NCBI GenBank assembly: GCA_963745135.1
Contig: CAVUWW010000013.1
Location: 1-52,838, forward strand
Direction: 5' to 3'
Length of the DNA stretch: 52,838 nt
Source: an uncultured bacterium
Lineage (GTDB): Bacteria; Patescibacteriota; Minisyncoccia; UBA6257; 2-01-FULL-56-20
Made by a program: the position numbers and the translations under genes. The notes under the pieces were generated by a model. It was not told where the DNA came from. It saw only the letters and a program-made list of their open reading frames with translations, and did not search any database. Shown piece after piece: positions 16,479-43,426 of this stretch (the stretch's first letter is position 1; every line of letters begins with the position of its first letter).

Positions 16479-16485
16479 AGGGTAT

Positions 16486-16597
16486 AGCCACTAGCCAATA
16501 GCCACTAGTGAATGATTAGCCACTAGTACCTAGCCAATAGTGAGTTTAATTCCTTTTAGAGTTTACGCTAGTCGCCAGTGGCTAACAACTAGTGGCT
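16486..16597. repeat. inverted array hairpin, GCCACTA / TAGTGGC units, upstream of tsaD
   Basis: agccactagccaatagccactagtg and tagccactagtacctagccaatagtg face gctagtcgccagtggctaacaactagtggct. On the tsaD strand the last arm ends 7 nt before ATG 16478. Confidence 0.8.
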
Positions 16598-16812
16598 CTA
16601 TTTTATCCACCGGAAACATTTGACTCGCCGCCTTTGGTTTGCTAACCTAAAAGCAGTAGGCATCCCACCCCGTGCGCGGGGAATCAGGCGACTGCCATTC
16701 ACTCCAGCGGCGATTCGGCGATTTTTCGGAGAAAACGCCTATGATTGTGCTTACGTCCCACGTTCAGGTAAACGGCGCGCCTTAGCGACGAAGAAACAAG
16801 CGCTTCGGCTTA

Positions 16813-17091: not shown

Positions 17092-17168
17092 ATCTCGGAA
17101 TTATAGGAACAAATTTTCAATGAGGCAACACGGAGCATTACGCGAAGCTGCGCTTCGCGTCGTCCAGA

Positions 17169-17435
17169 CCCCATTTCCATAATATCTCCAGCCCGCGTTG
17201 CGAGCAATTTTGCCCGAGTGCCAGGCGCGGCGAAGGAGACAATGGCTCACGCCATGGCTCCGAGTCCCAACGCCGCGATTCGGGCGAAATCGCCGCAACC
17301 CTCCGGGATTTGCCCAAACGCCGCAATGGCTGCGTTGCCTTGGGCTCGCGGTACCGAAAGGTACGGCTTCGCCCTCGCGCCTTGCCCTTGCGGCGCTTGG
17401 GTCGAATCGCGGGCGGAGAGATTATGGAAATGAGG
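17169..17435 (+). ncRNA. unclassified structured RNA, copy A (paralog of 23196..23465)
   Basis: 21-bp closing helix (17169..17189 with 17415..17435). At least 5 further helices change compensatorily relative to copy B. G.U pairs favour the plus strand. Confidence 0.7.
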
Positions 17436-17545
17436 TCACCACTAGACGATGGGAGCCGTCTTCAGGAGTTTAATAAATTTCAGGCGTTCCCGCAACTTTT
17501 TTTTATTGTTGGCAGGGCACGAAATTCATAATACAATTGATTTAT

Positions 17546-18358: not shown

Positions 18359-19414
18359 ATGCTAGGAAAAGGTTTGGAATCATTGATTCCCCAAAAAAGC
18401 GGCGGCAACGGCGACAATAACGACAGTCATGACGACGGGCAGATTTCCGTGCCGCAAGACGTGAATTCAAGTCTGGCGCCTGTGGATGAGCCGGAGGACA
18501 TGGGTCTCGGGTCTAGGGTCTCGGGTCTAGGGGAAGAGAAAAAATCAGAAACCCTAAACCCAAGACCCCAGACCCTAAACCCTAAGCCCGAACAAATTTT
18601 CGGTTCGATATTCCAGATTGAAGTTGACAAGATCTCGCCGAACCCGGACCAGCCGCGGCGGCATTTCGACGAGACGGCTTTGCACGACCTTGCGCGTTCC
18701 ATCCGCGAGTTCGGTTTTCTCCAGCCGCTCGTAGTCTCGAAAATCGAAAAGGAATCGCCGACGGGCATTGACGTCGAATACCAGCTCATCGCCGGCGAAC
18801 GGCGTTTGCTTGCGGCGAAATTGCTTGGCTTGCGGCTCGTGCCTGCCATTATCAGGAACGTCCATCTCGAGCGTGAAAAATTGGAGCTTGCCGTCATCGA
18901 GAACATCCAGCGCGAGGACTTGAATCCCATCGAGACCGCGCACGCGTTCCAGCGGCTGCAGGAAGAGTTTCGCATGACCCAGCGCGAGATTGCGGCGAAG
19001 CTCGGCAAGTCGCGGGAAGTTGTCGCGAATACCGTGCGGCTGCTCGACCTGCCGGAATATATCCAGGAGGCGGTCCAGAAAGGGGATCTGTCCGAAAGCC
19101 ATGCGCGCTTGCTGCTTTCGATCGGCGATCCGGGCGCGCAGAAAAGGTTGTTCGACGACATTTCCCTGAACCGCCTCACGACGCGCGATGTGAAGGAGCG
19201 CGTGAAGCAGATTGCAAAGCCACGCGAGCCGCGCGAAGGAGCGGAAATCTCGCCGGAGCTGAAAGCCATGCAGGAGTCATTGAGTTCAGCCCTCGGTGCG
19301 CCGGTCGAGATCCATAAAGGAGCGAACACCGGAAAGATCACGATTGTATTTTATTCGCAGGAAGAGCTGGAGAACATTTTGCAGAAATTGAAAAGCGGGG
19401 AGGGAAATCAATAA
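18359..19414 (+). CDS. parB: chromosome partitioning protein ParB/Spo0J
   Basis: 351 aa with N-terminal GKGLESLIP, ParB box ISPNPDQPRRHFDE and LIAGERRLLAAK. It carries an in-frame repeat-element insert. Confidence 0.9.
   Translation: MLGKGLESLIPQKSGGNGDNNDSHDDGQISVPQDVNSSLAPVDEPEDMGLGSRVSGLGEEKKSETLNPRPQTLNPKPEQIFGSIFQIEVDKISPNPDQPRRHFDETALHDLARSIREFGFLQPLVVSKIEKESPTGIDVEYQLIAGERRLLAAKLLGLRLVPAIIRNVHLEREKLELAVIENIQREDLNPIETAHAFQRLQEEFRMTQREIAAKLGKSREVVANTVRLLDLPEYIQEAVQKGDLSESHARLLLSIGDPGAQKRLFDDISLNRLTTRDVKERVKQIAKPREPREGAEISPELKAMQESLSSALGAPVEIHKGANTGKITIVFYSQEELENILQKLKSGEGNQ
18502..18589. repeat. GGGTCTM / ACCCTAA-type hairpin element inserted in frame inside parB
   Basis: Left arm gggtctcgggtctagggtctcgggtctagggg, loop, right arm aaaccctaaacccaagaccccagaccctaaaccctaagccc. 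Translated as GLGSRVSGLGEEKKSETLNPRPQTLNPKP. Confidence 0.85.
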
Positions 19415-19958: not shown

Positions 19959-21680
19959 CTAGATTAATCTGTAGCTCGCTTCCTTCACTCCCCTTATCGC
20001 TTTCAATTTCAAAATCAGCTTTTCGATTTTCGCCTTGTCTGTGGATTGGATCTCGATCTTGTCGAACGGGTAGCGGCTGCCTTTGGCGTTGTCGGAATGG
20101 AAGGCGAGGATGTTCATGTGGCTGCGCGCGATCGTGCTCGAGAGGTCTTTGATGAGCCCGACGCGGTCCTCGACGGCGATTTTCAGTTCACAACGGTTAG
20201 CCACCGGCCACCGGCCACCGGCCACCAGTTTTTTACGCTTTCCCGCCGCCCGAATATGGTCCTTCGCGACGCCCGTTGCGACGAATTTGAGCCAGTCGTT
20301 TGACGGTTTCTTCCCTTTTTGCGTGATGATTTCCACCATGTCGCCGGAGCGGAGCTTATGGTCGAGCGGCACGAGCGTTCCATTCGCTTTCGCGCCCACC
20401 GCCGCATCGCCGATCTCGGAATGGACGTGGTAGGCGAAGTCCACCGGCGTCGAGCCCGCCGGCAGGTCAATCACGTCGCCGTGCGGCGTGATGGCGAAGA
20501 TGCGGTCCTTGAAGAAATCGATCTTCATCGCGCGCACGAACTCGTCCGGGTCGGATGCCGCCTCGTTCCCGACATGGTCTTGCCAATTCTTCAGCTGTTG
20601 CACCCACTCAAGCTCTTTCGCAAGTTTTTTCCCGCTTATTTGATTTCCTCGCCCCTCGCTGCTTGCCCCTTGTCTCTGTTTATACAACCAATGTGCCGCG
20701 ACGCCGTACTCGTTCTCTTCGTGCATCTCCTTTGTGCGGATTTGGAACTCGATGATTTTCTCGTCCGGGCCGATGACGGTCGTGTGCAGGCTGCGGTACG
20801 CGTTCGGCTTCGGCATCGCGATGTAATCCTTGATGCGCCCGGGCAGCGGCGGCCACGCGTCGTGGATCAGGCCCAAGACGGCGTAGCATTCGGGGATGGT
20901 TTCCACGATGACGCGCATCGCGACGAGATCGTAGATTTTCCCGAGGTCCACGCCGTAGCGCAGAAGTTTCTTATATAAGCTGCTGTAGCGTTTCGCGCGG
21001 AAATCGATGGCGAGCGGGCGGATATTGTTTTTTTTGAGCAACGCTTCAACTCCTGGCTTCAATTTTTCCAAGTACGCGAGCCGCTCCCTGTATTGCTCTT
21101 TCGTCGTGTCGAGCAGCCACCGGTATTCTTTGGGGTGCAGGAACGGGAACGCAAGGTCCTGCAGTTCGCCGCTCAAATTTTGCATGCCGAGACGGTAGGC
21201 CAAGGGACCGTAGATCTCGTCGGTCTCGAGCGCAATGCGCTTCTGTTTTGCGGGCGGGAGCGCGGCGAGCGTTCGCATATTATGGAGCCGGTCGGCGAGT
21301 TTAATGAAGACGACGCGCAAGTCCTGGCTTAACGCCAAGATCATCTTTCTCATGTTTTCTGCGATATTTTCTTTCCCGCGATATTTCACGCGGCCGAGCT
21401 TCGTCATGCCGTCCACGAGGAAGGCGATCTCGTCGCCAAATTCTTTTTTCAGATCATCGAGCGAAACGCCGGTGTCCTCTACCGTGTCGTGCAGCAGCCC
21501 CGCCGCGACCGTCGCGTCATCCATGTGCCATCCGCTCAAAATTTCCGCCACAGCGGCCGGGTGGCTGAAGTACGGCTCGCCACTTATGCGCTTCTGCCCG
21601 CGGTGCGCGCGTTCGGCGAAGGCGTAGGCCTTGGCTATGATTCCCGTGGGATTTTGCCTGATGAGGTCTTTCAGGGGCAT
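19959..21680 (-). CDS. relA: bifunctional (p)ppGpp synthetase/hydrolase (RelA/SpoT homolog)
   Basis: 573 aa with an HD domain (HRGQKRISGEPYFSHP, HDTVEDT), a synthetase region, and TGS- and ACT-like C-terminal domains. Confidence 0.9.
   Translation of the reverse strand: MPLKDLIRQNPTGIIAKAYAFAERAHRGQKRISGEPYFSHPAAVAEILSGWHMDDATVAAGLLHDTVEDTGVSLDDLKKEFGDEIAFLVDGMTKLGRVKYRGKENIAENMRKMILALSQDLRVVFIKLADRLHNMRTLAALPPAKQKRIALETDEIYGPLAYRLGMQNLSGELQDLAFPFLHPKEYRWLLDTTKEQYRERLAYLEKLKPGVEALLKKNNIRPLAIDFRAKRYSSLYKKLLRYGVDLGKIYDLVAMRVIVETIPECYAVLGLIHDAWPPLPGRIKDYIAMPKPNAYRSLHTTVIGPDEKIIEFQIRTKEMHEENEYGVAAHWLYKQRQGASSEGRGNQISGKKLAKELEWVQQLKNWQDHVGNEAASDPDEFVRAMKIDFFKDRIFAITPHGDVIDLPAGSTPVDFAYHVHSEIGDAAVGAKANGTLVPLDHKLRSGDMVEIITQKGKKPSNDWLKFVATGVAKDHIRAAGKRKKLVAGGRWPVANRCELKIAVEDRVGLIKDLSSTIARSHMNILAFHSDNAKGSRYPFDKIEIQSTDKAKIEKLILKLKAIRGVKEASYRLI
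20201..20228. repeat. intragenic tandem heptamer CCACCGG x4 inside relA
   Basis: Sequence ccaccgg ccaccgg ccaccgg ccaccag, encoding LVAGGRWPVA on the gene strand. Confidence 0.9.
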
Positions 21681-21697
21681 GAGCTTATCTTATAGCA

Positions 21698-21726
21698 GCC
21701 ACTAGCCACTAGCCAATAGCCACTAG
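21698..21726. repeat. single tandem array GCCACTA x4 upstream of relA
   Basis: Sequence gccacta gccacta gccaata gccacta. Same unit as the tsaD-upstream hairpin, but no inverted partner is seen. Confidence 0.8.
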
Positions 21727-21740
21727 GGGCAAAGGAAAAT

Positions 21741-21790
21741 GAAGGCGGTCCTCAAATCTCCAAAGAAGACCGCCTTCGTTTTCCCTTTTT
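21741..21790 (+). terminator. orphan terminator-like hairpin
   Basis: Stem gaaggcggtcctc / gaagaccgccttc followed by gttttcccttttt. There is no upstream plus-strand gene. Confidence 0.45.
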
Positions 21791-21793
21791 CTG

Positions 21794-21802
21794 TGTTATA
21801 CT
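21794..21802 (+). promoter_or_regulatory. extended -10 box TGtTATACT, 7 nt before ATG 21810 (leaderless candidate)
   Basis: Sequence cTGtTATACTttcatccATG. Confidence 0.5.
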
Positions 21803-21809
21803 TTCATCC

Positions 21810-22061
21810 ATGGAAAACTTCGAACTGTCGCCCGAGGCGAAGGCATTGAAGCCGGGTCGGTATCAGCATTTCAAGGGCGATATTATGGAGGTGATTGGCG
21901 TTGCGTTTCATAGCGAGACATTGGAAGAATTCGTGGTTTATAAACATCTCACGGGCGAGCACGCAGGCGAAGATTACTATTGGGTTCGGCCGTTGAAGAT
22001 GTTCACCGAAGAAGTGGAGCGGGACGGGGAGAAAATGCCGAGGTTCCGGCATATCGGATGA
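21810..22061 (+). CDS. DUF1653-like small protein
   Basis: 83 aa. GRYQHFKGDIMEVIGVAFHSETLEEFVVYKHL...WVRPLKMF matches my recollection of the DUF1653 pattern. Confidence 0.7.
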   Translation: MENFELSPEAKALKPGRYQHFKGDIMEVIGVAFHSETLEEFVVYKHLTGEHAGEDYYWVRPLKMFTEEVERDGEKMPRFRHIG

Positions 22062-22073
22062 GGTAAGACAAGA

Positions 22074-22114
22074 GAAGATTCCCTTCGCCGTGCCGCGCGG
22101 CGAAGGGAATCTTC
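22074..22114 (+). terminator. 17-bp hairpin after the DUF1653 gene (no T-run)
   Basis: Stem gaagattcccttcgccg / cggcgaagggaatcttc with a 7-nt loop. Confidence 0.45.
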
Positions 22115-22201
22115 GAATTCGAAGCAGTATGTTAATCCGCGGTCGCAAATCAACCGATCGCAGTTCAAAAACCCTTATTTTGCAAGGTGTTTTGCAGGTG
22201 C

Positions 22202-22231
22202 TTGACAGAAATATTCCCATAGTGCTATAAT
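22202..22231 (+). promoter_or_regulatory. consensus sigma70-type promoter of the DGR target gene
   Basis: TTGACA (22202..22207), 18-nt spacer ending in TGc, then TATAAT (22226..22231). Confidence 0.65.
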
Positions 22232-22361
22232 AGCTTGGTAGGCAAAAGCTCTTTTATAACAGATATTCCAAGGATTTACTGCTTCGTTGCAGCTTCCAGC
22301 TTGTCGCACAAACGATGCGTTGAAAGCTGCAACCAAGCGGCAGAAAGAAGGAGGAACCGCC

Positions 22362-23063
22362 ATGCTTACTCATGGAACCGCCTCGCAACTTCATGTTGAC
22401 GGGGGATACGTTGAATTTCAACAGGCAGTGCTTCGCGCCCTGCCTCACGACATCGATCCGAACATCGCCGACGGGTGGCGAAACAACACGGGAGCGCTCG
22501 CAAAAGTTTTGCGCGAGGCCCTGCTTCCGCCGGACAATCCCGCAACGGAAGCCGCTCCGGTTCCCAAGCCCGAACCGCAACCGCTCCTCATCCCCGTCTG
22601 CACGGAGAAGGTTTTCCCGAGAGTGGCTTTCACGGCTCGCGACCGCTTCGTCGTAAACACGAAGAAGAACGCACCCGTGAAGATCTCCTATCTGGGAGAC
22701 AACTTCAAGGCGTGGTTCCTCGGCAAAGAGGAGCAACCGTTTGCGGGATCGACCCTCAACTGCAGCAAGCTCTCGCGCTACTCCGTCGACGGCCCGATTA
22801 TCAAGGAACTCGGCGGCGAGGAAAAGGCCGAGACCACGCTCGCCGAACTCTTTTCGCTCATGGAAATGCAGAAGAACGGCGAAAGCGGTGCGCTGCTCAC
22901 AAACGGATACGCCAATATCTTTTACATCAAGGATACGGCCGGCGGTCTCCGGACGGTGGACGCGCGCTGGGGCGGCGTCGGCTGGCTCGTGCACGCCTTC
23001 GCCGTGGCGCACCCGTACGAGTGGAGCGACGGGTGCCGGGTCTTCTCCCGCGATTCTCGTTAG
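22362..23063 (+). CDS. DGR target protein (variable C-terminus, no signal peptide)
   Basis: Start moved to ATG 22362, preceded by AAGGAGG at -13..-7. The last 38 codons form the VR. The C-terminus ..WGGVGW...YEWSDGCRVFSRDSR is like C-type-lectin-fold DGR targets. Confidence 0.8.
   Translation: MLTHGTASQLHVDGGYVEFQQAVLRALPHDIDPNIADGWRNNTGALAKVLREALLPPDNPATEAAPVPKPEPQPLLIPVCTEKVFPRVAFTARDRFVVNTKKNAPVKISYLGDNFKAWFLGKEEQPFAGSTLNCSKLSRYSVDGPIIKELGGEEKAETTLAELFSLMEMQKNGESGALLTNGYANIFYIKDTAGGLRTVDARWGGVGWLVHAFAVAHPYEWSDGCRVFSRDSR
22939..23052 (+). other. DGR variable repeat (VR)
   Basis: Gap-free alignment to 23667..23780. All 23 mismatches are at adenines of the template copy. Confidence 0.9.
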
Positions 23064-23111
23064 CACTCGGTCGCTTTGCCCTTTTAACCCTTGGACACTC
23101 TGTCCCTTTGA

Positions 23112-23150
23112 CCCCCGCATCTTCTTCGGAAGCGGCGGGGGTTTTCTTTT
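23112..23150 (+). terminator. intrinsic terminator after the DGR target gene
   Basis: Stem cccccgc / gcggggg followed by ttttctttt. Confidence 0.7.
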
Positions 23151-23151
23151 G

Positions 23152-23160
23152 TGCTATGAT
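23152..23160 (+). promoter_or_regulatory. extended -10 box TGcTATGAT upstream of the structured RNA and TR
   Basis: gTGcTATGAT is the same 10-mer as at 13394..13403. Confidence 0.45.
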
Positions 23161-23195
23161 AAATCACGAAGGCAATGAATTCTGCGGAACGGCTA

Positions 23196-23465
23196 GACCC
23201 CTATCTCGAAAATAATTCAGCTCGCGTTGCGAGCGATTTTGTCCGAGAGCTAGGCAGGACAAGGAGGCAATAGTTTTTACTATGGCTCCGCAGTCCTAAC
23301 GACGCGATCGGACAAAATCGCCGCAACCCTCTGGGATCTGGCCAAATGCCACAATGGCTGCGTTGCTTCGGGTTCGCAGTACCATGAGGTACAGCTTCAC
23401 CCTCGCGCCTTGCCCTTGTGGCATTTGGCCGAGATCGCGGGCGAATTATTTTCGAGATAGGGGTC
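23196..23465 (+). ncRNA. unclassified structured RNA, copy B (inside the DGR cassette)
   Basis: Perfect 23-bp closing helix (23196..23218 with 23443..23465) followed by a U-run. Conserved core blocks and covarying helices relative to copy A. Confidence 0.7.
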
Positions 23466-23666
23466 TTGTTTTTCCGCCATGCCTTCGGGAAAACGCTCTG
23501 CCGGAATCACGTCGGGTACGCTTGCCGTGAGTGCGCAGGACGGAGTACTCTTACGCAACATACGAGAATTGGTATCTGCGGCTGGCGGACTTCTACGTCC
23601 CGAATACGATACAGTCCTGAGAGTAATCGAAGGGCAGTGGCGCGGATGGCCGCGGATACGAGACGA

Positions 23667-23780
23667 CCGGCGATCTCCGGACGGTGAACGCGAACTGGAA
23701 CGACGACGGCTGGAACGTGAACGCCAACGCCGTGACGAACCCGAACGAGTGGAACGACGAGAACCAGGTCTTCTCCCGAA
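23667..23780 (+). other. DGR template repeat (TR)
   Basis: In the VR frame it reads TGDLRTVNANWNDDGWNVNANAVTNPNEWNDENQVFSRN. Every Asn codon is AAC. Confidence 0.9.
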
Positions 23781-23791
23781 ACTGTCGTATG

Positions 23792-23825
23792 GCCTCCCGC
23801 TATCTCGCGGGAGGCTTGCTTTTTA
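23792..23825 (+). terminator. hairpin plus U-run directly 3' of TR
   Basis: Stem gcctcccgc / gcgggaggc, then ttgctttttat. The loop contains the avd stop codon on the other strand. Confidence 0.55.
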
Positions 23826-24144
23826 TGCCGTTGATCCAGCCGCCGAGCTGCCTCCCCACCTCGTCGAACTTTTCCGAAAGTAAGATATACTTCTGGTTGT
23901 CGAGCGCTCCCACGTCCCAGAGTATCTGCAAAAAGAACTTCGCCACGTCGAGCCGCACGTTCGCTTTCTGGAGATAGGGCAGCTTCTGCTCCTTGCCCAA
24001 GTAGCTTGCGATGAACAGCAGTTCAGCCGTTTCAACTAACGAGCGATCGATCTTTGTGCCGAGCGAATATCTGAAATCTTTCGGCATGTGCGGCAGGAAC
24101 TCGTGCCAGGCCTTGTATGCGGCCACCAGGTGCTGGATGATCAA
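23800..24144 (-). CDS. avd: Avd-like accessory variability determinant (four-helix bundle); start uncertain
   Basis: ..AYKAWHEFLPHMPKDFRYSLGTKIDRSLVE...LSEKFDEVGRQLGGWINGIK resembles Avd / 23S-IVS four-helix-bundle proteins. The long ORF to 24351 is antisense to the RT, so TTG 24144 is taken as a provisional start. Confidence 0.7.
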   Translation of the reverse strand: MIIQHLVAAYKAWHEFLPHMPKDFRYSLGTKIDRSLVETAELLFIASYLGKEQKLPYLQKANVRLDVAKFFLQILWDVGALDNQKYILLSEKFDEVGRQLGGWINGIKSKPPAR

Positions 24145-24158
24145 AAGCTGGGAACTGC

Positions 24159-24169
24159 GGGGGGGGGGG
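24159..24169. repeat. G11 / C11 homopolymer between avd and RT
   Basis: 11 consecutive G, 19 nt upstream of the RT ATG. Confidence 0.9.
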
Positions 24170-24188
24170 TACGTGAAAATTTGAATCC

Positions 24189-25244
24189 ATGAAGATACAG
24201 TTTGCCGGAAATTTGGAAAAAATCGCGAGCGCCGAAAACCTGCTGGAAGCTTGGCGGGAATTCTTGCCGGGCAAGCGCGGAAAGCATGACGTGCAGGAAT
24301 TCCAACTGCGGCTGATGGATAATATTCTATCACTCCGCGCCGATTTGACAAACGGTACGTACCGCCACGGCGGGTATCAGCATTTCAAAATCGCCGACCC
24401 GAAGCCGCGCGACATCCATAAGGCAACCGTGCGCGACCGCCTCGTCCACCACGCCATTTATCGCCAGCTCTATCCATTCTTCGACAAGACGTTCATCGCC
24501 GACTCCTTTTCCTGCCGCGACGGCAAGGGGACGCATGCGGCGCTGGATCGGTTTTGCGTGTTCGCACGGAAAGCCAGCAAGAACAACACGCGCGCCTGTT
24601 GGATCCTGAAGTGCGACATCCGTAAATTCTTCGCGAACATTGACCATCAAATTTTATTGGAGATTTTGGGAACATATATTCCGGACAAAAAAATTTTGCG
24701 GTTGCTGCGGGAAATCATCGAAAGCTTTTCTTCGACCATGCCCGGCATCGGCTTGCCCCGCCCTTTTGGAGCAAAACCAAAAGAGCGGGGCTTGCCGCTC
24801 GGCAACCTCACTTCGCAATTGTTTGTGAACGTTTACATGAACGAATTTGATCAATTTGCAAAACATACATTGAAGGCAAAATACTATGTCCGCTACGCCG
24901 ACGATTTCGCCGTCTTTTCCCCGAACCGCGATTGGCTCGAAATCATCCTGCCTGAAATCCGGAATTTCCTTTTGAACCGGCTCAAGCTAAATCTACATCC
25001 CGAAAAAGTTTCAATCAGAACCATTGCCTCGGGCGAGGATTTCCTCGGCTGGGTGCATTTTCCCGACCACCGCGTTTTGCGGACGGCGACGAAGCGGCGA
25101 ATGATGAGGAGATTGGCGGACCATCCGAAAGAAGAAACGATCCAGTCTTATCGCGGGCTTTTGGGCCATGGGAATGCGCAGAAGTTGACATCGAGATTAA
25201 AAGGCTTTTGGGTTGCAAACGAAAATGCAACGGATGCCTTTTGA
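24189..25244 (+). CDS. DGR-type reverse transcriptase
   Basis: 351 aa with RT motifs including LPLGNLTSQLFVNVY ([I/L]GxxxSQ) and YVRYADDFAVF. No maturase or endonuclease domains. Confidence 0.9.
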   Translation: MKIQFAGNLEKIASAENLLEAWREFLPGKRGKHDVQEFQLRLMDNILSLRADLTNGTYRHGGYQHFKIADPKPRDIHKATVRDRLVHHAIYRQLYPFFDKTFIADSFSCRDGKGTHAALDRFCVFARKASKNNTRACWILKCDIRKFFANIDHQILLEILGTYIPDKKILRLLREIIESFSSTMPGIGLPRPFGAKPKERGLPLGNLTSQLFVNVYMNEFDQFAKHTLKAKYYVRYADDFAVFSPNRDWLEIILPEIRNFLLNRLKLNLHPEKVSIRTIASGEDFLGWVHFPDHRVLRTATKRRMMRRLADHPKEETIQSYRGLLGHGNAQKLTSRLKGFWVANENATDAF

Positions 25245-25339
25245 GGGGCTCCCGGAGGCGCGAAGGCGCCGAGGGCGAGCGGCCGGCCAGCAGGCCTGAA
25301 CGCTGTACCCTCAAAAGGCATCCGTTGCATTTTCGTTTG
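25216..25339. repeat. perfect 32-bp inverted repeat with a 60-nt GC-rich spacer at the RT 3' end
   Basis: caaacgaaaatgcaacggatgccttttgaggg (25216..25247) pairs with ccctcaaaaggcatccgttgcattttcgtttg (25308..25339). The RT stop codon lies in the left arm. Confidence 0.9.
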
Positions 25340-25360
25340 TCGCTTGATAAACTTTTACCT

Positions 25361-25720
25361 ATGACCTTGGATGAATTCCAGAAAGCCGACTTGCGCGTGG
25401 CTACCATCGTCGCCGCGGAACGGGTCGAGGGGTCGGAGAAATTGTTGAAGCTTCAAATCAATCTCGGAGAGGAATTTCGGCAGATTATTTCGGGAGTGGC
25501 CAAGCAATACGCTCCCGAGGAATTGGTCGGCAAGCAGGTCGTCGTCATCGCAAATTTGGAACCGCGCACTATAATGGGTTTGGAAAGCCACGGGATGCTC
25601 CTCGCGGCGCACGGCGAAAATGGCTCGCCCTCCCAACTTTTGCCGGGCGAAAATCGGGAAGGCGAGCCGGTGATTTTAACGGTCGAGAAGCCGGTTCCGG
25701 CGGGAGCGAAGGTTTCGTGA
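25361..25720 (+). CDS. tRNA-binding domain protein (CsaA / EMAP-II-like OB fold)
   Basis: Start moved to MTLDEFQKADLRVATIVAAERVEGSEKLLKLQINLG, a typical tRNA-binding domain N-terminus. Confidence 0.75.
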   Translation: MTLDEFQKADLRVATIVAAERVEGSEKLLKLQINLGEEFRQIISGVAKQYAPEELVGKQVVVIANLEPRTIMGLESHGMLLAAHGENGSPSQLLPGENREGEPVILTVEKPVPAGAKVS

Positions 25721-25722
25721 TA

Positions 25723-25811
25723 GGCATACGAATGTACGAATTTTTACGAATATACGGACGGGAAACTCAATCTCTTATTCGTATATTCGTACCGATTCGT
25801 AAATTCGCATG
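25723..25811. repeat. GGCATACGAAT...ATTCG hairpin element (near-identical to 27513..27600)
   Basis: Shares both arms and the loop gggaaaYtcaatctc with the copy at 27513. The ATG at 25809 lies in the last arm unit (attcgcATG). Confidence 0.85.
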
Positions 25812-26357
25812 ACCCTCTCAGATAAAACCATGAATAAACCACTATCTATAGCAATTTTCATCATCCTCGTCATTGCGGTCATTGCGGGCGCGGTTTGGTA
25901 CAGCAATAATGTTTTGCAGGGCAATATGGTGAACGGCATCGGGCAAGCGGCAAGCAGCACGGGACAGCCGGCGGGGAATATAAATCAAGCGACAAGCGCT
26001 AACGCTACAACCACAAACATGAACCAAGGCCAATTGCAGATTACGGACCTCGTCGTGGGCACGGGGACGGTGGCGGAGAACGGCGACACGGTGAACGTGC
26101 TTTACACGGGGACGCTCGACGACGGTACTGTGTTCGACGCTTCGTCCATGCACGGCAACCAGCCGTTCAGCTTCACCCTCGGCGCGGGACAGGTCATCAA
26201 GGGATGGGATGAGGGCGTGCTTGGCATGAAGGTTGGCGGCAAGCGCGAGCTCGTCATCCCGCCTTCGCTTGGCTATGGCGCGCAGGGAGCCGGTAATACC
26301 ATCCCGCCGGACGCGACGTTGCATTTTACGGTTCAGCTTTTGTCAGTCGGGCAATAG
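25809..26357 (+). CDS. FKBP-type peptidyl-prolyl cis-trans isomerase with N-terminal membrane anchor
   Basis: Motifs GDTVNVLYTGTLDDGTVFDAS, FTLGAGQVIKGWDEGVLGMKVGGKRELVIPPSLGYG. An alternative start is at 25830. Confidence 0.85.
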   Translation: MTLSDKTMNKPLSIAIFIILVIAVIAGAVWYSNNVLQGNMVNGIGQAASSTGQPAGNINQATSANATTTNMNQGQLQITDLVVGTGTVAENGDTVNVLYTGTLDDGTVFDASSMHGNQPFSFTLGAGQVIKGWDEGVLGMKVGGKRELVIPPSLGYGAQGAGNTIPPDATLHFTVQLLSVGQ

Positions 26358-26468
26358 TTCTCCGTGCGCAAATCTAAATGGCTAACGATGGCCGTCTTCA
26401 AGATTGGGGAAGAAGGCGGCCATCGTTTTTTTCTCGTCCCGCGTCTGTGGGGGTCTGGTTTGCGCGCG
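26358..26468 (+). repeat. 3'-flank element, third member (TTCTCCGTGCGCAAATC ... GGTTTGCGCGCG clamp)
   Basis: Same 5' boundary as 35861 (TTCTCCGYGCGCAAATC). The inner hairpin is the terminator at 26384..26432. Confidence 0.65.
26384..26432 (+). terminator. intrinsic terminator after the FKBP gene
   Basis: Stem aacgatggccgtcttc / gaaggcggccatcgtt, then T7. Confidence 0.75.
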
Positions 26469-26506
26469 AAGCTAAATAAAAATGCCGCCAGAGGGTTGCG
26501 GCTGCT

Positions 26507-27031
26507 TTAGTGATTCGCTTGCGCGAGGAGTAGGTCGCCGTATGACACTGAAATCAAATCGCTTTCGCGGATTTCCAAAAGCGAAAGATATGTTCGGCAT
26601 TGTTTGAGCAGCTGTTCTCGCCCAATGGTTCCGTCGCTGTCAATCGCTTCGATTTCCACGAATGTTCCCAAACTCTCGACGACATCAAGGTGGAATTTTA
26701 CGTTCCCGATGAAATATATCTCCCGCACCTTATCCACCACGACCAGAACGCCCAGGGAGCGGACCAAAATTTCTTTCAGAGAAAATTGAGGATTCGACGC
26801 GAAAAGAATGACGTTCGATTCCTTTGGCCCTTCTTGGTCGGTGCGTTTGTAAAAGACAAGAAAATTCTCAATGTTCCCTTCGCGCAATTTCATCCTGCCG
26901 TCATTCACCCGGAAATACGTGTCGATTTGGCGGTCGGTGCCTTTGAAGTCAGCTCCTTGAGACCTGAGGAAATCCCGAACTTTTTTGTGGCTGCCGCAAC
27001 GAGCTTTGATTTCAACGTTAAGGTGCCTCAT
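26507..27031 (-). CDS. CYTH-domain protein (class IV adenylate cyclase / triphosphatase-like)
   Basis: 174 aa with N-terminal ExExK motif (NVEIKAR), then DTYF, KLREG and FVEIEA strands typical of CyaB/CYTH. Confidence 0.75.
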   Translation of the reverse strand: MRHLNVEIKARCGSHKKVRDFLRSQGADFKGTDRQIDTYFRVNDGRMKLREGNIENFLVFYKRTDQEGPKESNVILFASNPQFSLKEILVRSLGVLVVVDKVREIYFIGNVKFHLDVVESLGTFVEIEAIDSDGTIGREQLLKQCRTYLSLLEIRESDLISVSYGDLLLAQANH

Positions 27032-27116
27032 GGCAGTTCTTTACAAGAATGGTTGCAAAAGAGAATGGGATTGTCAATGGAATACGAATTGCGGCGCTTG
27101 ATGTATAATTGAATAA

Positions 27117-27512
27117 GTGAACCATCGCCACGGTCAAGCATTCCTTTCCGTCGTCCTGCTCATCGGCACCATCGTGATAGTCGTCGGGACAACCATTGCC
27201 TTCGTCACTGTGGCTTTCATTGATAGCAGCTACGGCACGCAGGCATTGCAGGGCGCCGAAGCCACGGCGATGGCGGGCATCAAGGACGCGCAATTGCGCC
27301 TGGCCAGGGGCGACCTTACAAGCGGCGGTGTCTACGCTCTTCCGACCATCGCTGGATCGGCAGCCGTCACGGTCACGCCGCCGAGCGCCGGCCTCGCGAC
27401 GGTCCTTTCCATTGCCACCGTCAACTTCCGCACACGGAAGATCCAAGCCGTGTTTTCAATTGACCCCACGACGGGGAAAGTGACGGAAGTGTCGCAGGTG
27501 GAAATTCAATGA
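27117..27512 (+). CDS. PilX-like pilus-associated protein (GTG start)
   Basis: 131 aa with an N-terminal hydrophobic helix GQAFLSVVLLIGTIVIVVGTTIAFV, then QALQGAEATAMAGIKDA, as in the PilX N-terminal domain. Confidence 0.5.
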   Translation: MNHRHGQAFLSVVLLIGTIVIVVGTTIAFVTVAFIDSSYGTQALQGAEATAMAGIKDAQLRLARGDLTSGGVYALPTIAGSAAVTVTPPSAGLATVLSIATVNFRTRKIQAVFSIDPTTGKVTEVSQVEIQ

Positions 27513-27600
27513 GGCATACGAATGTACGAATAGTTACGAATATACGAATGGGAAATTCAATCTCTTATTCGTATATTCGTACCGATTCGTAAATTCGTAA
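27513..27600. repeat. GGCATACGAAT...ATTCGTAA hairpin element
   Basis: Near-identical to 25723..25811. It starts 1 nt after stop 27512, and ATG 27609 is 8 nt downstream. Confidence 0.85.
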
Positions 27601-27608
27601 CCCTACCA

Positions 27609-43297: not shown

Positions 43298-43353
43298 TGA
43301 TATTCATAGTACGCGCGTTTTTATGGATGTCAAGCATCCGGAGTCCGCCAACG

Positions 43354-43426
43354 TGGACCGGCGGAGAGTCGAACTCCGATCTGCCAGGTGACAGGCTGGC
43401 CGTGTTACCCTTATCACCACCGGCCC
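43354..43426 (-). tRNA. tRNA-Asp-like (GUC) with an 8-nt anticodon loop
   Basis: Hand-folded: acceptor GGGCCGG/CCGGUCC, T-arm CGGAG-UUCGACU-CUCCG, perfect 5-bp anticodon stem GCCAG/CUGGC enclosing CCUGUCAC (8 nt). Confidence 0.75.

Follow-up and report, generated by a model that had tools for sequence, protein, structure and literature searches.

Diversity-generating retroelements (DGRs) with the B3 layout 'TR-(avd)-RT', in which avd lies antisense between the template repeat (TR) and the reverse transcriptase (RT) gene, are typical of CPR (Wu et al. 2018, PMC5758913). We analyzed a locus of this kind in a window of 52,838 nt, by which we mean the whole stretch of DNA studied. The genes in question are those for the target, i.e., the variable protein (22362–23063, plus strand), the accessory protein Avd (23800–24147, minus strand) and the RT (24189–25244, plus strand). 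We consider it highly probable (about 93%) that the locus is a chromosomal DGR of the Patescibacteria (CPR) clade, with the order target gene and its variable repeat (VR), TR, avd on the opposite strand, and RT gene. The first-pass annotation had called the element complete; all parts are indeed present, but the locus also has three palindromic insertions not shared by its relatives.

The nearest homologs and related loci came from Liptonbacteria, Paceibacterota, Taylorbacteria, Vogelbacteria, and other Patescibacteria MAGs. Among the 41 related loci with a TR, all that keep avd or the RT gene share one arrangement, in which the target gene is followed by the TR, by avd in opposite orientation, and by the RT gene; avd is on the minus strand in every one that has it. 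The mismatches between the repeats were dominated by adenines in 41 of 41 loci.

The repeat pair and its target gene

Positions 22939–23052 and 23667–23780 aligned without gaps at an offset of 728, and on recounting, as first reported, all 23 mismatches fell on adenines of the downstream copy (12 A>G, six A>T, five A>C). The hypergeometric probability that 23 mismatches all fall on the 31 A among 114 positions is 1.1e-17. The earlier adenine tally was off by one, with eight of 31 adenines unchanged in the VR rather than nine of 32. The homology reaches 4 nt further in the 5' direction (22935/23663), adding one A mismatch at 22938. The VR (22935–23050, plus strand) takes up the final ~40 codons of the target gene and differs from the TR (23663–23778, plus strand) only at TR adenines. 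The same offset-728 pair was recovered by a repeat search of the window, and no second VR turned up anywhere in the window when the TR was used as a BLAST query. Codon analysis supported the assignment of the TR: translated in the VR frame it reads TTGDLRTVNANWNDDGWNVNANAVTNPNEWNDENQVFSRNCRM, 30 of the 31 adenines occupy codon position 1 or 2, and there are 11 AAC codons and no AAT, so that every Asn codon is AAC, as had been claimed.

The first non-A mismatches were at 23782 (C/T) and 23784 (G/C), exactly where the earlier hand alignment had placed them. The VR is followed by an IMH-like end, CGATTCTCGTTA (23051–23062, plus strand; family consensus CAATTC...), with fixed non-A differences from the TR end. 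In nearly all relatives the VR end is CGCAATTC, and their TRs carry CGAAACT; the two ends thus differ at non-A positions across the family, as IMH and IMH* do. The IMH*-like TR end, AAACTGTCGTAT (23779–23790, plus strand), is a proposed partner of the primer strand described below, based on complementarity and covariation.

The target is a protein of 233 aa whose ATG is preceded by GGAGG and aligns with the N-termini of its homologs, of which there are >1000 in Patescibacteria. It matched no Pfam or NCBIfam family, we found no recognisable domain or transmembrane segment in it, and profile searches against PDB and Pfam returned nothing. The AF2 model was confident (pLDDT 91.6), but a Foldseek search against PDB and BFVD yielded no matches at E <= 1e-3. 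The top PDB matches were animal C-type lectins with non-significant E values (0.9–2.3) and TM scores of 0.24–0.35, and the C-type lectin fold suggested for the C-terminus is thus unconfirmed. The family alignment is hypervariable exactly at the positions of the TR AAC codons, which are set in a conserved scaffold, LRAVxVxWxxxGWxVxAxSVxxPxxWxxGxQVFSRNS.

A putative promoter of the target gene (22202–22231, plus strand) consists of TTGACA, an 18-nt spacer, and TATAAT with a TG extension, matching the consensus at 12 of 12 positions. Between the stop codon and the hairpin that follows are five degenerate 8-nt units (23075–23114, plus strand): GCTTTGCC CTTTTAAC CCTTGGAC ACTCTGTC CCTTTGAC. They were detected by autocorrelation (family-wide 0.465 at lag 8 and 0.419 at lag 16, compared to about 0.21–0.28 for the coding control) and were not called by TRF. 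The G+C-rich hairpin CCCCCGC..GCGGGGG with its T run (23112–23149, plus strand) is found in the same place in relatives, the hairpin proper (23112–23141) lying about 50 nt past the VR. Because of the T run, it may do no more than terminate the target gene, and it is also a possible counterpart of the post-IMH hairpin; G+C-rich inverted repeats after the IMH were reported in only 34% of DGRs (Wu et al., PMC5758913).

The template RNA

The TR is preceded by a structured leader (23170–23659, plus strand; about 210 nt without its insertion). Across 30 relatives, its 47 helix pairs were paired in 96.9% of cases compared to 41–53% in slid controls, and 36 of the 47 showed compensatory double changes. 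The leader had no match in Rfam. An extended -10-like box picked out by eye, TGCTATGAT (23152–23160, plus strand), could serve the TR RNA, and TATAAT/TATACT-like boxes align with it in relatives. Helix H4 pairs GUAUCUGCGGCU (23572–23583) with GGCCGCGGAUAC (23648–23659) on the plus strand over 12 bp, 10 of them with compensatory changes, and ends 3 nt before the TR/VR homology. We regard it as a candidate cDNA-stop duplex resembling the 'cPRT Stop' of Bordetella (bioRxiv 10.1101/2023.10.23.563531). Directly after the TR, a terminator-like 10-bp hairpin, GGCCTCCCGC..GCGGGAGGCT, and a T run (23791–23824, plus strand) overlap the avd stop codon. Covarying stems are found at this place in 41 of 41 loci, and the hairpin is a candidate terminator and/or Avd-binding stem-loop. 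Stem-loops just 3' of the TR were reported by Handa et al. (bioRxiv 10.1101/2023.10.23.563531) for 207 of 278 DGRs, among them those of CPR.

Directly 5' of H4 is a candidate RNA primer strand, AUACGAGAAUUG (23560–23571, plus strand), identified by covariation and complementarity. It pairs with the TR 3' flank (23779–23790) at nine of 12 positions, and it is likewise complementary to the VR end (23051–23062) at nine of 12. Across loci, the motif matched the TR flank of its own locus at 7.97 of 12 positions and those of other loci at 6.70 (permutation p 5e-5); for the VR IMH, the corresponding values were 7.78 and 7.23 (p 1.5e-4). The leader/TR-flank duplex was 68% paired, compared to 34–52% in slid controls, and is imperfect, with three systematic mismatches. 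The leader motif matches the VR end better than the TR 3' flank. The Bordetella segment Sp47-56 complements the VR IMH perfectly over 9 nt and does not do so for the TR IMH*, an observation made earlier by Naorem et al. (PMC5703328). Because the leader motif carries this published signature of the Bordetella RNA primer, the template RNA looks circularly permuted relative to that of Bordetella. We found no description of a structured leader or an upstream primer motif in the main texts of PMC5758913 and PMC8144416.

Taken together, these features suggest the following mechanism. A non-coding RNA consisting of the leader, the TR, and the hairpin with its U run would be transcribed from its own promoter at ~23152–23160, both transcript ends being predicted. 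By homology, the RT and Avd would bind this template RNA. Synthesis of cDNA would start from the TR 3' end, with the RNA itself serving as the cis primer, probably through 23560–23571 folded onto 23779–23790, as the covariation and the Bordetella precedent suggest, and would halt at H4, which abuts the TR 5' end. The RT appears to misincorporate opposite template adenines, a step visible in the mismatch pattern. The cDNA would then replace the VR (22935–23050), with direction possibly given by pairing of the primer RNA with the VR-specific end (23051–23062). As a result, a maximum of about 31 A-templated positions, spread over some 21 codons in the C-terminal beta-sheet of the 233-aa target, would be re-randomised.

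A different arrangement of the RNA, in the order known from Bordetella, is possible although we think it doubtful. Transcription would then read through the hairpin (23791–23816) into avd antisense, the elements for priming and for the RT would lie downstream of the TR, and the leader would be no more than a regulatory 5' UTR whose complementarity to the IMH arose by chance. For many DGRs, including those of CPR, Handa et al. (bioRxiv 10.1101/2023.10.23.563531) reported Avd-binding stem-loops and stop duplexes that were predicted from the sequence around the TR (40 nt on its upstream and 100 nt on its downstream side). In the present locus the TR is immediately followed by a hairpin, and the RT gene lies downstream on the same strand with no promoter of its own found in a promoter-consensus scan. 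However, RNAalifold predicted no upstream–downstream duplex for 75 nt upstream and 150 nt downstream of the TR in 31 loci, where conservation downstream of the TR is confounded by avd coding. A conserved U run follows the hairpin, consistent with an intrinsic terminator, and the motif that covaries with the TR flank lies in the leader, next to the helix that ends just before the TR.

Insertions, recent activity and the enzymes

The VR-to-TR offset of 728 compares to 376–491 in 39 relatives (422–491 in all but one). The difference coincides with a 270-nt structured element (23196–23465, plus strand) in the loop of leader hairpin H1, whose host stem is formed by 23184–23189 and 23472–23477; a relative (L006) carries TGCGGAACGGCTACGGTTTTTCCGCC uninterrupted at this place. 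Since the insertion forms a closed hairpin of its own within the loop of another, the host leader keeps its fold. A second copy of the element lies at 17166–17440; when the copies were compared, compensatory changes were seen in 19 of 102 pairs and none was broken. The second insertion is a 39-nt in-frame palindrome within the RT gene (24758–24796, plus strand), which adds 13 aa, LPRPFGAKPKERG, right before GLPLGNLTSQ. It is flanked by an 8-nt direct repeat, GGCTTGCC (24750–57 and 24789–96), and a terminator-like hairpin on the minus strand (24800–24783) lies over it. The third, at the 3' end of the RT gene, is an inverted repeat with perfectly matching 32-bp arms around a 60-nt loop (25216–25339), identical in a sibling contig; its left arm codes for the last RT residues.

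The sibling contig (L001) is 97.9% identical to the window. Its VR differs at 17 sites, of which 16 are A-templated (P 3e-10), in line with the first-pass annotation, which had expected variation in sibling genomes to be confined to such positions; the odd one out is at a TR cytosine (23027). Substitutions per 100 nt numbered 14.9 in the VR, 0.19 in the RT gene, and 0.69 in the target gene outside the VR, in a comparison with this single sibling, a visibly error-prone contig with many 1-nt indels. Three TR differences in the sibling are not mirrored in its VR. Because of the 16 A-templated differences among 17, the element appears to have been active recently, despite the insertions in the leader and the RT.

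These insertions raise the question of whether the element is a fossil that was active until lately and is now disabled by the 13-aa RT insertion, the 270-nt leader insertion, or both, its A pattern being a relic. We consider this unlikely. The RT insertion immediately precedes a conserved motif and is absent from eight close homologs, 39 relatives lack the leader insertion, and the exact RT protein is missing from the protein collection, in which the target is present. On the other hand, none of the three ORFs is disrupted in the window, and the RT insertion is in frame. Both insertions are moreover shared with the sibling, while the VRs differ at 16 A-templated sites, which suggests that diversification went on after the insertions. 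Because of the same two insertions, present-day activity of what we take to be a DGR is not guaranteed, and a paralogous RT–Avd pair elsewhere in the genome could have acted in trans.

The RT (351 aa) belongs to RVT_1 and carries GLPLGNLTSQ and YADD. In RTs of the DGR clade, the motif (I/L)GxxxSQ stands in place of the QGxxxSP of group II introns. The best PDB match was by far the Bordetella phage DGR RT (bRT, 8ub7; E 2.4e-44), followed by group II intron (5.4e-23) and retron (about 1e-4) RTs, which upholds the earlier classification as a DGR-type RT. In the alignment with 8ub7, R74 is conserved, LGNLTSQ corresponds to IGSLTSQ, and L stands at I181 of (I/L)GxxxSQ. None of the NCBIfam cut-offs for group II, retron, and DRT families was reached (group II 144.6 of 300 bits, Drt3a 62.8 of 200, retron 44.3 of 235).

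That the locus is no DGR and pairs a retron, group II intron, or defence RT with a diverged direct repeat is a reading to which the best sub-threshold NCBIfam match (group II RT/maturase) and the annotation of homologs lend some color, but it is refuted by the A-only mismatches (P 1e-17), the adjacent bAvd gene, and a bRT match 21 orders of magnitude better than that to group II, with no intron RNA or retron ncRNA family found by Rfam. Public annotations of the RT homologs read 'group II intron RT' or 'retron-type RT'.

The avd gene encodes 115 aa from a TTG start, and its product ends in ..EKFDEVGRQLGGWINGIK... The Avd likeness noted for this minus-strand ORF was borne out by Pfam PF22296 (bAvd), for which it scored 46.6 bits against a cut-off of 40; for NCBIfam NF033474 (DivGenRetAVD), it scored 70.7 bits, under the cut-off of 80. 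A sequence search found no solved (PDB) relative. The 41-nt gap between the divergent start codons of avd and the RT gene contains a G11 homopolymer (24159–24169), which is G10 in the sibling and may be a sequencing error. A promoter-like site in the 5' coding region of the RT gene (24324–24351, minus strand; TTGTCA, 16 nt, TAGAAT, with TG) matches the consensus at 10 of 12 positions and could drive avd.

Comparison with known systems

The layout of the locus is that of the published CPR 'B3' DGRs and not that of Bordetella. In the Bordetella BPP-1 DGR (mtd-avd-TR-brt; AY029185; 8ub7), the RT (E 2.4e-44) and Avd are homologous to those described here. In both elements the VR is AAC-rich and at the 3' end of the target gene, the IMH differs from the IMH*, an RNA segment complements the IMH better than the IMH*, a duplex abuts the TR 5' end, and a stem-loop directly follows the TR. 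Unlike in BPP-1, avd here is on the other strand, downstream of the TR, and the candidate primer strand, the stop-duplex partner, a small stem-loop, and an A-rich stretch lie 5' of the TR rather than in a 3' spacer. The element has a cellular host rather than a phage; its target is no tail fibre, and a C-type lectin fold is unconfirmed for this protein. The hairpin past the VR lies at a distance of about 50 nt and may also serve as a terminator.

With the archaeal/DPANN variable protein AvpA (Handa et al. 2016, cited in PMC8144416) and with two C-type lectin targets, TvpA of Treponema and TaqVP of Thermus, the target shares a C-terminal VR on a beta-rich domain and a conserved scaffold of aromatic and Gly residues (W, GW, W) between the variable positions, but there is no detectable similarity by sequence or Foldseek.

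The closest systems are the B3 DGRs of CPR/Patescibacteria (PMC5758913; clade 2 of Roux et al. 2021, PMC8144416), which have the same gene order and strands. They are likewise chromosomal and A-specific, with a C-terminal VR in a small target that lacks any recognisable domain or transmembrane segment. There is no essential difference between them and the element described here; this copy has its three palindromic insertions in the leader, in the RT gene, and at the RT 3' end. It is a DGR of a kind already known and common in Patescibacteria (CPR).

The repeat pair and the retroelement genes

The repeat pair of the first-pass annotation, an ungapped alignment of 22939–23052 in the variable repeat (VR) with 23667–23780 in the template repeat (TR) at an offset of 728, was borne out by realignment, and the same pair was recovered independently by a repeat finder (entry D1). 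As had been described, all 23 mismatches fell where the TR copy has A (to G in 12 cases, to T in six and to C in five), and the earliest non-A mismatches lay at 23782 and 23784. The number of unchanged adenines needed correction, from nine to eight, so that the TR copy holds 31 adenines rather than 32. The probability that 23 mismatches would all fall on 31 adenines among 114 positions was 1.1e-17. The repeat continued for 4 nt farther in the 5′ direction, which added one A mismatch at 22938. Translated in the VR frame, the TR reads TTGDLRTVNANWNDDGWNVNANAVTNPNEWNDENQVFSRN; it contains 11 AAC and no AAT codons, and 30 of the 31 adenines occupy codon position 1 or 2. No third copy of the repeat was found in a search of the whole window.

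The ORF at 24189–25244 (+ strand, 351 aa) matched the Pfam reverse transcriptase (RT) family RVT_1. Its assignment to the diversity-generating retroelement (DGR) type, made earlier from motifs, was upheld by comparison with solved structures: chain 8ub7_A was by far the top relative (E-value 2.4e-44), followed by group II intron RTs (5.4e-23 or higher) and retron RTs (about 1e-4). Judging by its sequence (IGSLTSQ, YMDD context) and length (328 aa), we take 8ub7_A to be the Bordetella phage bRT. In the alignment of the two, LGNLTSQ lies over IGSLTSQ, and Arg74 is conserved. The NCBIfam models of group II, retron, DRT and Abi RTs all gave scores far under their cut-offs. The minus-strand ORF at 23800–24147 (115 aa, TTG start), previously likened to Avd, proved to match the Pfam bAvd family (46.6 bits vs. 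a threshold of 40) and scored slightly under the cut-off of the NCBI DGR-Avd model (70.7 vs. 80). The avd and RT genes diverge, with 41 nt between their start codons; this interval contains a G11 homopolymer (24159–24169; G10 in the sibling locus), which either is phase-variable or arose as an artefact of sequencing. Another ORF of 351 aa, at 18359–19414, was considered as a second RT and rejected; by eye, it reads as ParB-like and adjoins a ParA-like ORF.

Scanning with one genome per species yielded 80 related loci, nearly all from Patescibacteria (CPR) MAGs. A TR was detectable in 41 loci, the window and its sibling included, and A dominated the TR mismatches there. Wherever avd or RT persists in these 41 loci, the gene order is target (+), TR (+), avd (−), RT (+), and the avd and RT start codons are separated by ~30–120 nt across loci. 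In about half of the 80 loci (L005, L008, L009 and ~35 others), the 5 kb around the target homolog contain neither a TR nor avd or RT; these may be orphan or remote targets. The DGR interpretation of the locus is supported, and the locus falls within a known clade, the CPR DGRs of type B3 (published layout TR-(avd)-RT, with avd antisense), as one of its ordinary members.

Recent activity was assessed using the sibling locus L001 (ENA sample ERZ25039535), which was reached via an RT fragment (P0219, 95% identical). This noisy assembly, with numerous single-base indels, was 97.9% identical to window positions 20697–27504 and had the same gene order. The two loci differ by 14.9 substitutions per 100 nt in the VR, 0.69 in the rest of the target gene, 0.19 in the RT gene and 0.09 in the 2.2 kb downstream. 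Variation between sibling genomes had been expected at A-templated sites, and 16 of the 17 VR differences were found there (P = 3e-10), the remaining one being at a TR cytosine. The L001 TR carries three differences without a counterpart in its VR. Because the VR differences are concentrated and A-specific, they are hard to explain otherwise than by DGR mutagenesis after the lineages split. The locus shows signs of recent activity, and adds one more confirmed, apparently active DGR to a clade whose abundance in CPR bacteria was established before. At the edge of the compared region, part of a RelA/SpoT-like gene (named from its translation; 20697–21300, L001 2–600) differs by ~7%, and the following 1 kb is identical, which points to recombination or to a contig end that is chimeric.

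The target protein and the insertions

The target ORF (22362–23063, + strand) encodes 233 aa. It matched no Pfam or NCBIfam family, and sequence and profile searches against solved structures gave no match. More than 1000 homologs were found, those with names being from Patescibacteria (Liptonbacteria, Paceibacterota). In the family alignment, a conserved body is followed at the C-terminus by the scaffold LRAVxVxWxxxGWxVxAxSVxxPxxWxxGxQVFSRNS, whose hypervariable x positions fall on the AAC codons of the TR. The AlphaFold2 model (115 homologs; pLDDT 91.6, pTM 0.71) predicts a helical N-terminal part followed by an alpha/beta domain, with the VR on the last strands (residues 196–203, 208–214 and 226–230). 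A Foldseek search of the model against PDB and BFVD returned no match at E ≤ 1e-3. The best PDB matches were weak (E 0.9–2.3, TM 0.24–0.35) and comprised animal C-type lectins (MCL, NKR-P1) and the C-terminal domain of Bdellovibrio Bd2740. The C-type lectin fold raised in the first-pass annotation was therefore not confirmed, though the target may still have it. Given a confident model without a structural neighbour, it is reasonable to regard this family as a candidate variable-display scaffold that is new or highly divergent. Reading the sequence by eye, we saw no obvious signal peptide or membrane segment in the target itself; some family members (e.g., P0003 and P0006) have tandem domain duplications and a signal-peptide-like N-terminus.

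The target gene is flanked by further repeats. An 18-nt inverted repeat (22281–22338) lies in the 5′ UTR between a consensus promoter and the start codon; in the locus of the homolog P0029, a translated N-terminal extension points to conservation of part of this UTR. Between the target stop codon and a terminator there is a degenerate 8-nt array, CTTTGAnn, of three to six units (23075–23114; also in L002–L081). The array is conserved family-wide (lag-8 autocorrelation 0.465 vs. 0.21), was not called by TRF, being visible only in the family autocorrelation, and may serve in cis for homing or RNA binding. Elsewhere, a TACGAAT-rich hairpin repeat family has at least two intergenic copies (25725–25811 and 27512–27608), and short AGCCACTAG/AGCCAATAG-like repeat runs occupy two intergenic regions (16480–16600 and 21697–21724).

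Three insertions set this copy apart. The VR-to-TR distance is 728 nt in the window and 733 nt in the sibling vs. 376–491 nt in the 39 other loci (422–491 nt in all but one). The extra DNA is a 270-nt element (23196–23465) with a closed three-way fold (z-score of the region −10), which interrupts the loop of the first leader hairpin. Where the related locus L006 has uninterrupted TGCGGAACGGCTACGGTTTTTCCGCC, the window has GCGGAACGGCTA, the element and then TTGTTTTTCCGCC. A second copy lies at 17166–17440, with a tRNA-Glu gene on one side and a ParA-like gene on the other. Both copies are on the + strand and are ~80–85% identical; 19 of 102 predicted pairs were changed on both sides and none was broken. 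No plasmid or phage match (BLAST) and no conserved ORF was found for the element. The core of its second arm (CAAUGGCUGCGUUGC, a variable hairpin, CUCGCGCCUUGCCCUUG) also occurs in long intergenic hairpins of four unrelated metagenome contigs (sites include L082 1777–1854, L084 5736–5797 (−) and L085 2179–2256 (−)); its neighbours there include, by eye, 2-oxoacid dehydrogenase E2-like ORFs on both sides at one site and sufD-like and NAD synthetase-like ORFs at another.

The second insertion is a palindrome of 39 nt in frame within the RT gene (24758–24796; 13 aa, residues 186–198), bounded by the 8-nt direct repeat GGCTTGCC (24750–24757 and 24789–24796) and missing from eight close homologs; it resembles a very small MITE-like element or a duplicated hairpin. 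The third is an inverted repeat (25216–25339) with perfectly matching 32-bp arms around a G+C-rich loop of 60 nt; it overlaps the last RT codons and is identical in the sibling. All three are present in the sibling, and the divergence of the VRs came later; the insertions thus seem to be tolerated, unless the activity was supplied in trans by an RT–Avd paralog. Tolerance of a 270-nt hairpin in the first loop of the leader is likewise suggested.

The leader of the template RNA

The ~200 nt 5′ of the TR are conserved family-wide. A −10-like box, TGCTATGAT (23152–23160, by eye), precedes this leader, and relatives have one too. RNAalifold predicted seven helices from 30 loci. In the six leader helices and the hairpin that follows the TR, 96.9% of the alignment cells were paired vs. 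41–53% with slid partners, 36 of the 47 pairs showed compensatory double changes, and none of five measures was reached by any shuffle. From the 5′ end, the region comprises helices H0–H3, an A-rich stretch, a near-invariant motif (consensus AAGAAUUGG) and the 5′ strand of helix H4 (23572–23583), followed by a small stem-loop, a second A-rich stretch, a stem-loop, the 3′ strand of H4, the TR and the hairpin. H4 is a 12-bp helix whose 3′ strand (23648–23659) stops 3 nt short of the TR/VR homology. The post-TR hairpin, 7–10 bp with covarying stems and then TTTT, lies immediately 3′ of the TR in every locus; in the window this terminator-like site (23791–23816) overlaps the avd stop codon.

No Rfam family was found for the leader or the inserted element (whole window at gathering thresholds, 23000–25450 by E-value); these scans returned only three tRNAs and spurious miRNA-like matches. 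For the tRNA at 43353–43426 (− strand; Rfam tRNA, 46.6 bits), ARAGORN gave no identity and an odd anticodon, "gt". A pairing of the 3′ strand of the post-TR hairpin with CUCCCG of the TR was considered and dropped; by eye, it is not kept in relatives.

A candidate primer strand 5′ of the template repeat

We infer, at roughly even odds, that the TR RNA of this clade is a circularly permuted form of the Bordetella phage DGR RNA, with primer and stop elements in the 5′ leader and a 3′ end at the post-TR hairpin. The comparative argument is that a leader motif has the primer signature and the corresponding position, yet lies 5′ of the TR. This candidate primer, AUACGAGAAUUG (23560–23571, just 5′ of H4), can pair at nine of 12 positions with the TR end that follows the TR body (IMH*, 23779–23790). 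In a set of 36 non-redundant loci, the motif's reverse complement matched its own TR flank at 7.97 and those of other loci at 6.70 of 12 positions (permutation p = 5e-5); for the variable distal half, the values were 4.47 and 3.50 of six (p = 5e-5). On the alignment, the helix between motif and TR flank was 68% paired (slid partners, 34–52%) and had 27 doubly changed cells (slid partners, 4–13). The three systematic mismatches between motif and TR are exactly the sites that distinguish the VR end (IMH, 23051–23062) from the TR end. The VR end, CAATTC... in the family, is complementary to the motif (own match 5.42 of six in the proximal half). Rare variants covary: CACGAGTTGG with AACTCGTG in L023, CAATCGG with CGATTG in L056, and likewise in L076 and L081. 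If the pairing is real, this covariation of leader, TR flank and VR end over dozens of loci is comparative evidence for the idea that primer–IMH pairing sets the direction of homing, and dozens of covarying primer/IMH/IMH* triplets bear on how the cDNA picks VR over TR.

The TR transcript may read through past the post-TR hairpin, since avd coding confounds conservation downstream. RNAalifold, run on the upstream and downstream TR flanks of 31 loci after these had been concatenated, found no duplex of the Bordetella style between them. An earlier primer idea, in which the leader consensus AAGAAUUGG paired with CCAGGUCUU of the TR, was rejected because A23766 within it is copied into cDNA, as seen from its differing between VR and TR and between siblings. 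The searched literature yielded no description of a permuted TR RNA in CPR DGRs; Handa et al. restricted their analysis to the 40 nt before and the 100 nt after the TR (bioRxiv 10.1101/2023.10.23.563531).

In the Bordetella RNA, an avd segment, the TR and an Avd-binding stem-loop (Sp3–33) precede the primer strand, Sp47–56, which pairs with TR117–129 through seven canonical and three non-standard pairs. Two nucleotides later comes the Sp strand of the "cPRT Stop" duplex, whose partner is the avd segment immediately upstream of the TR, and then a small stem-loop, adenosines, a single-stranded ring and a bRT-binding stem-loop (bioRxiv 10.1101/2023.10.23.563531). In the BPP-1 sequence (AY029185), we found that the reverse complement of Sp47–56, TGACCACCTA, perfectly matches VR118–126 (TGACCACCT) and only imperfectly the TR (TGCCCATCACC). 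If the leader does hold primer and stop elements, CPR DGRs would offer a permutation of the Bordetella ribonucleoprotein carried out by nature. As in Bordetella, the leader motif has the published signature of a primer strand, at the same place relative to a stop-duplex-like helix. Unlike in Bordetella, the candidate primer strand lies 5′ of the TR rather than in the 3′ spacer, and the putative stop-duplex strand, small stem-loop, A-rich stretch and further stem-loop lie in the ~210-nt 5′ leader instead of that spacer.
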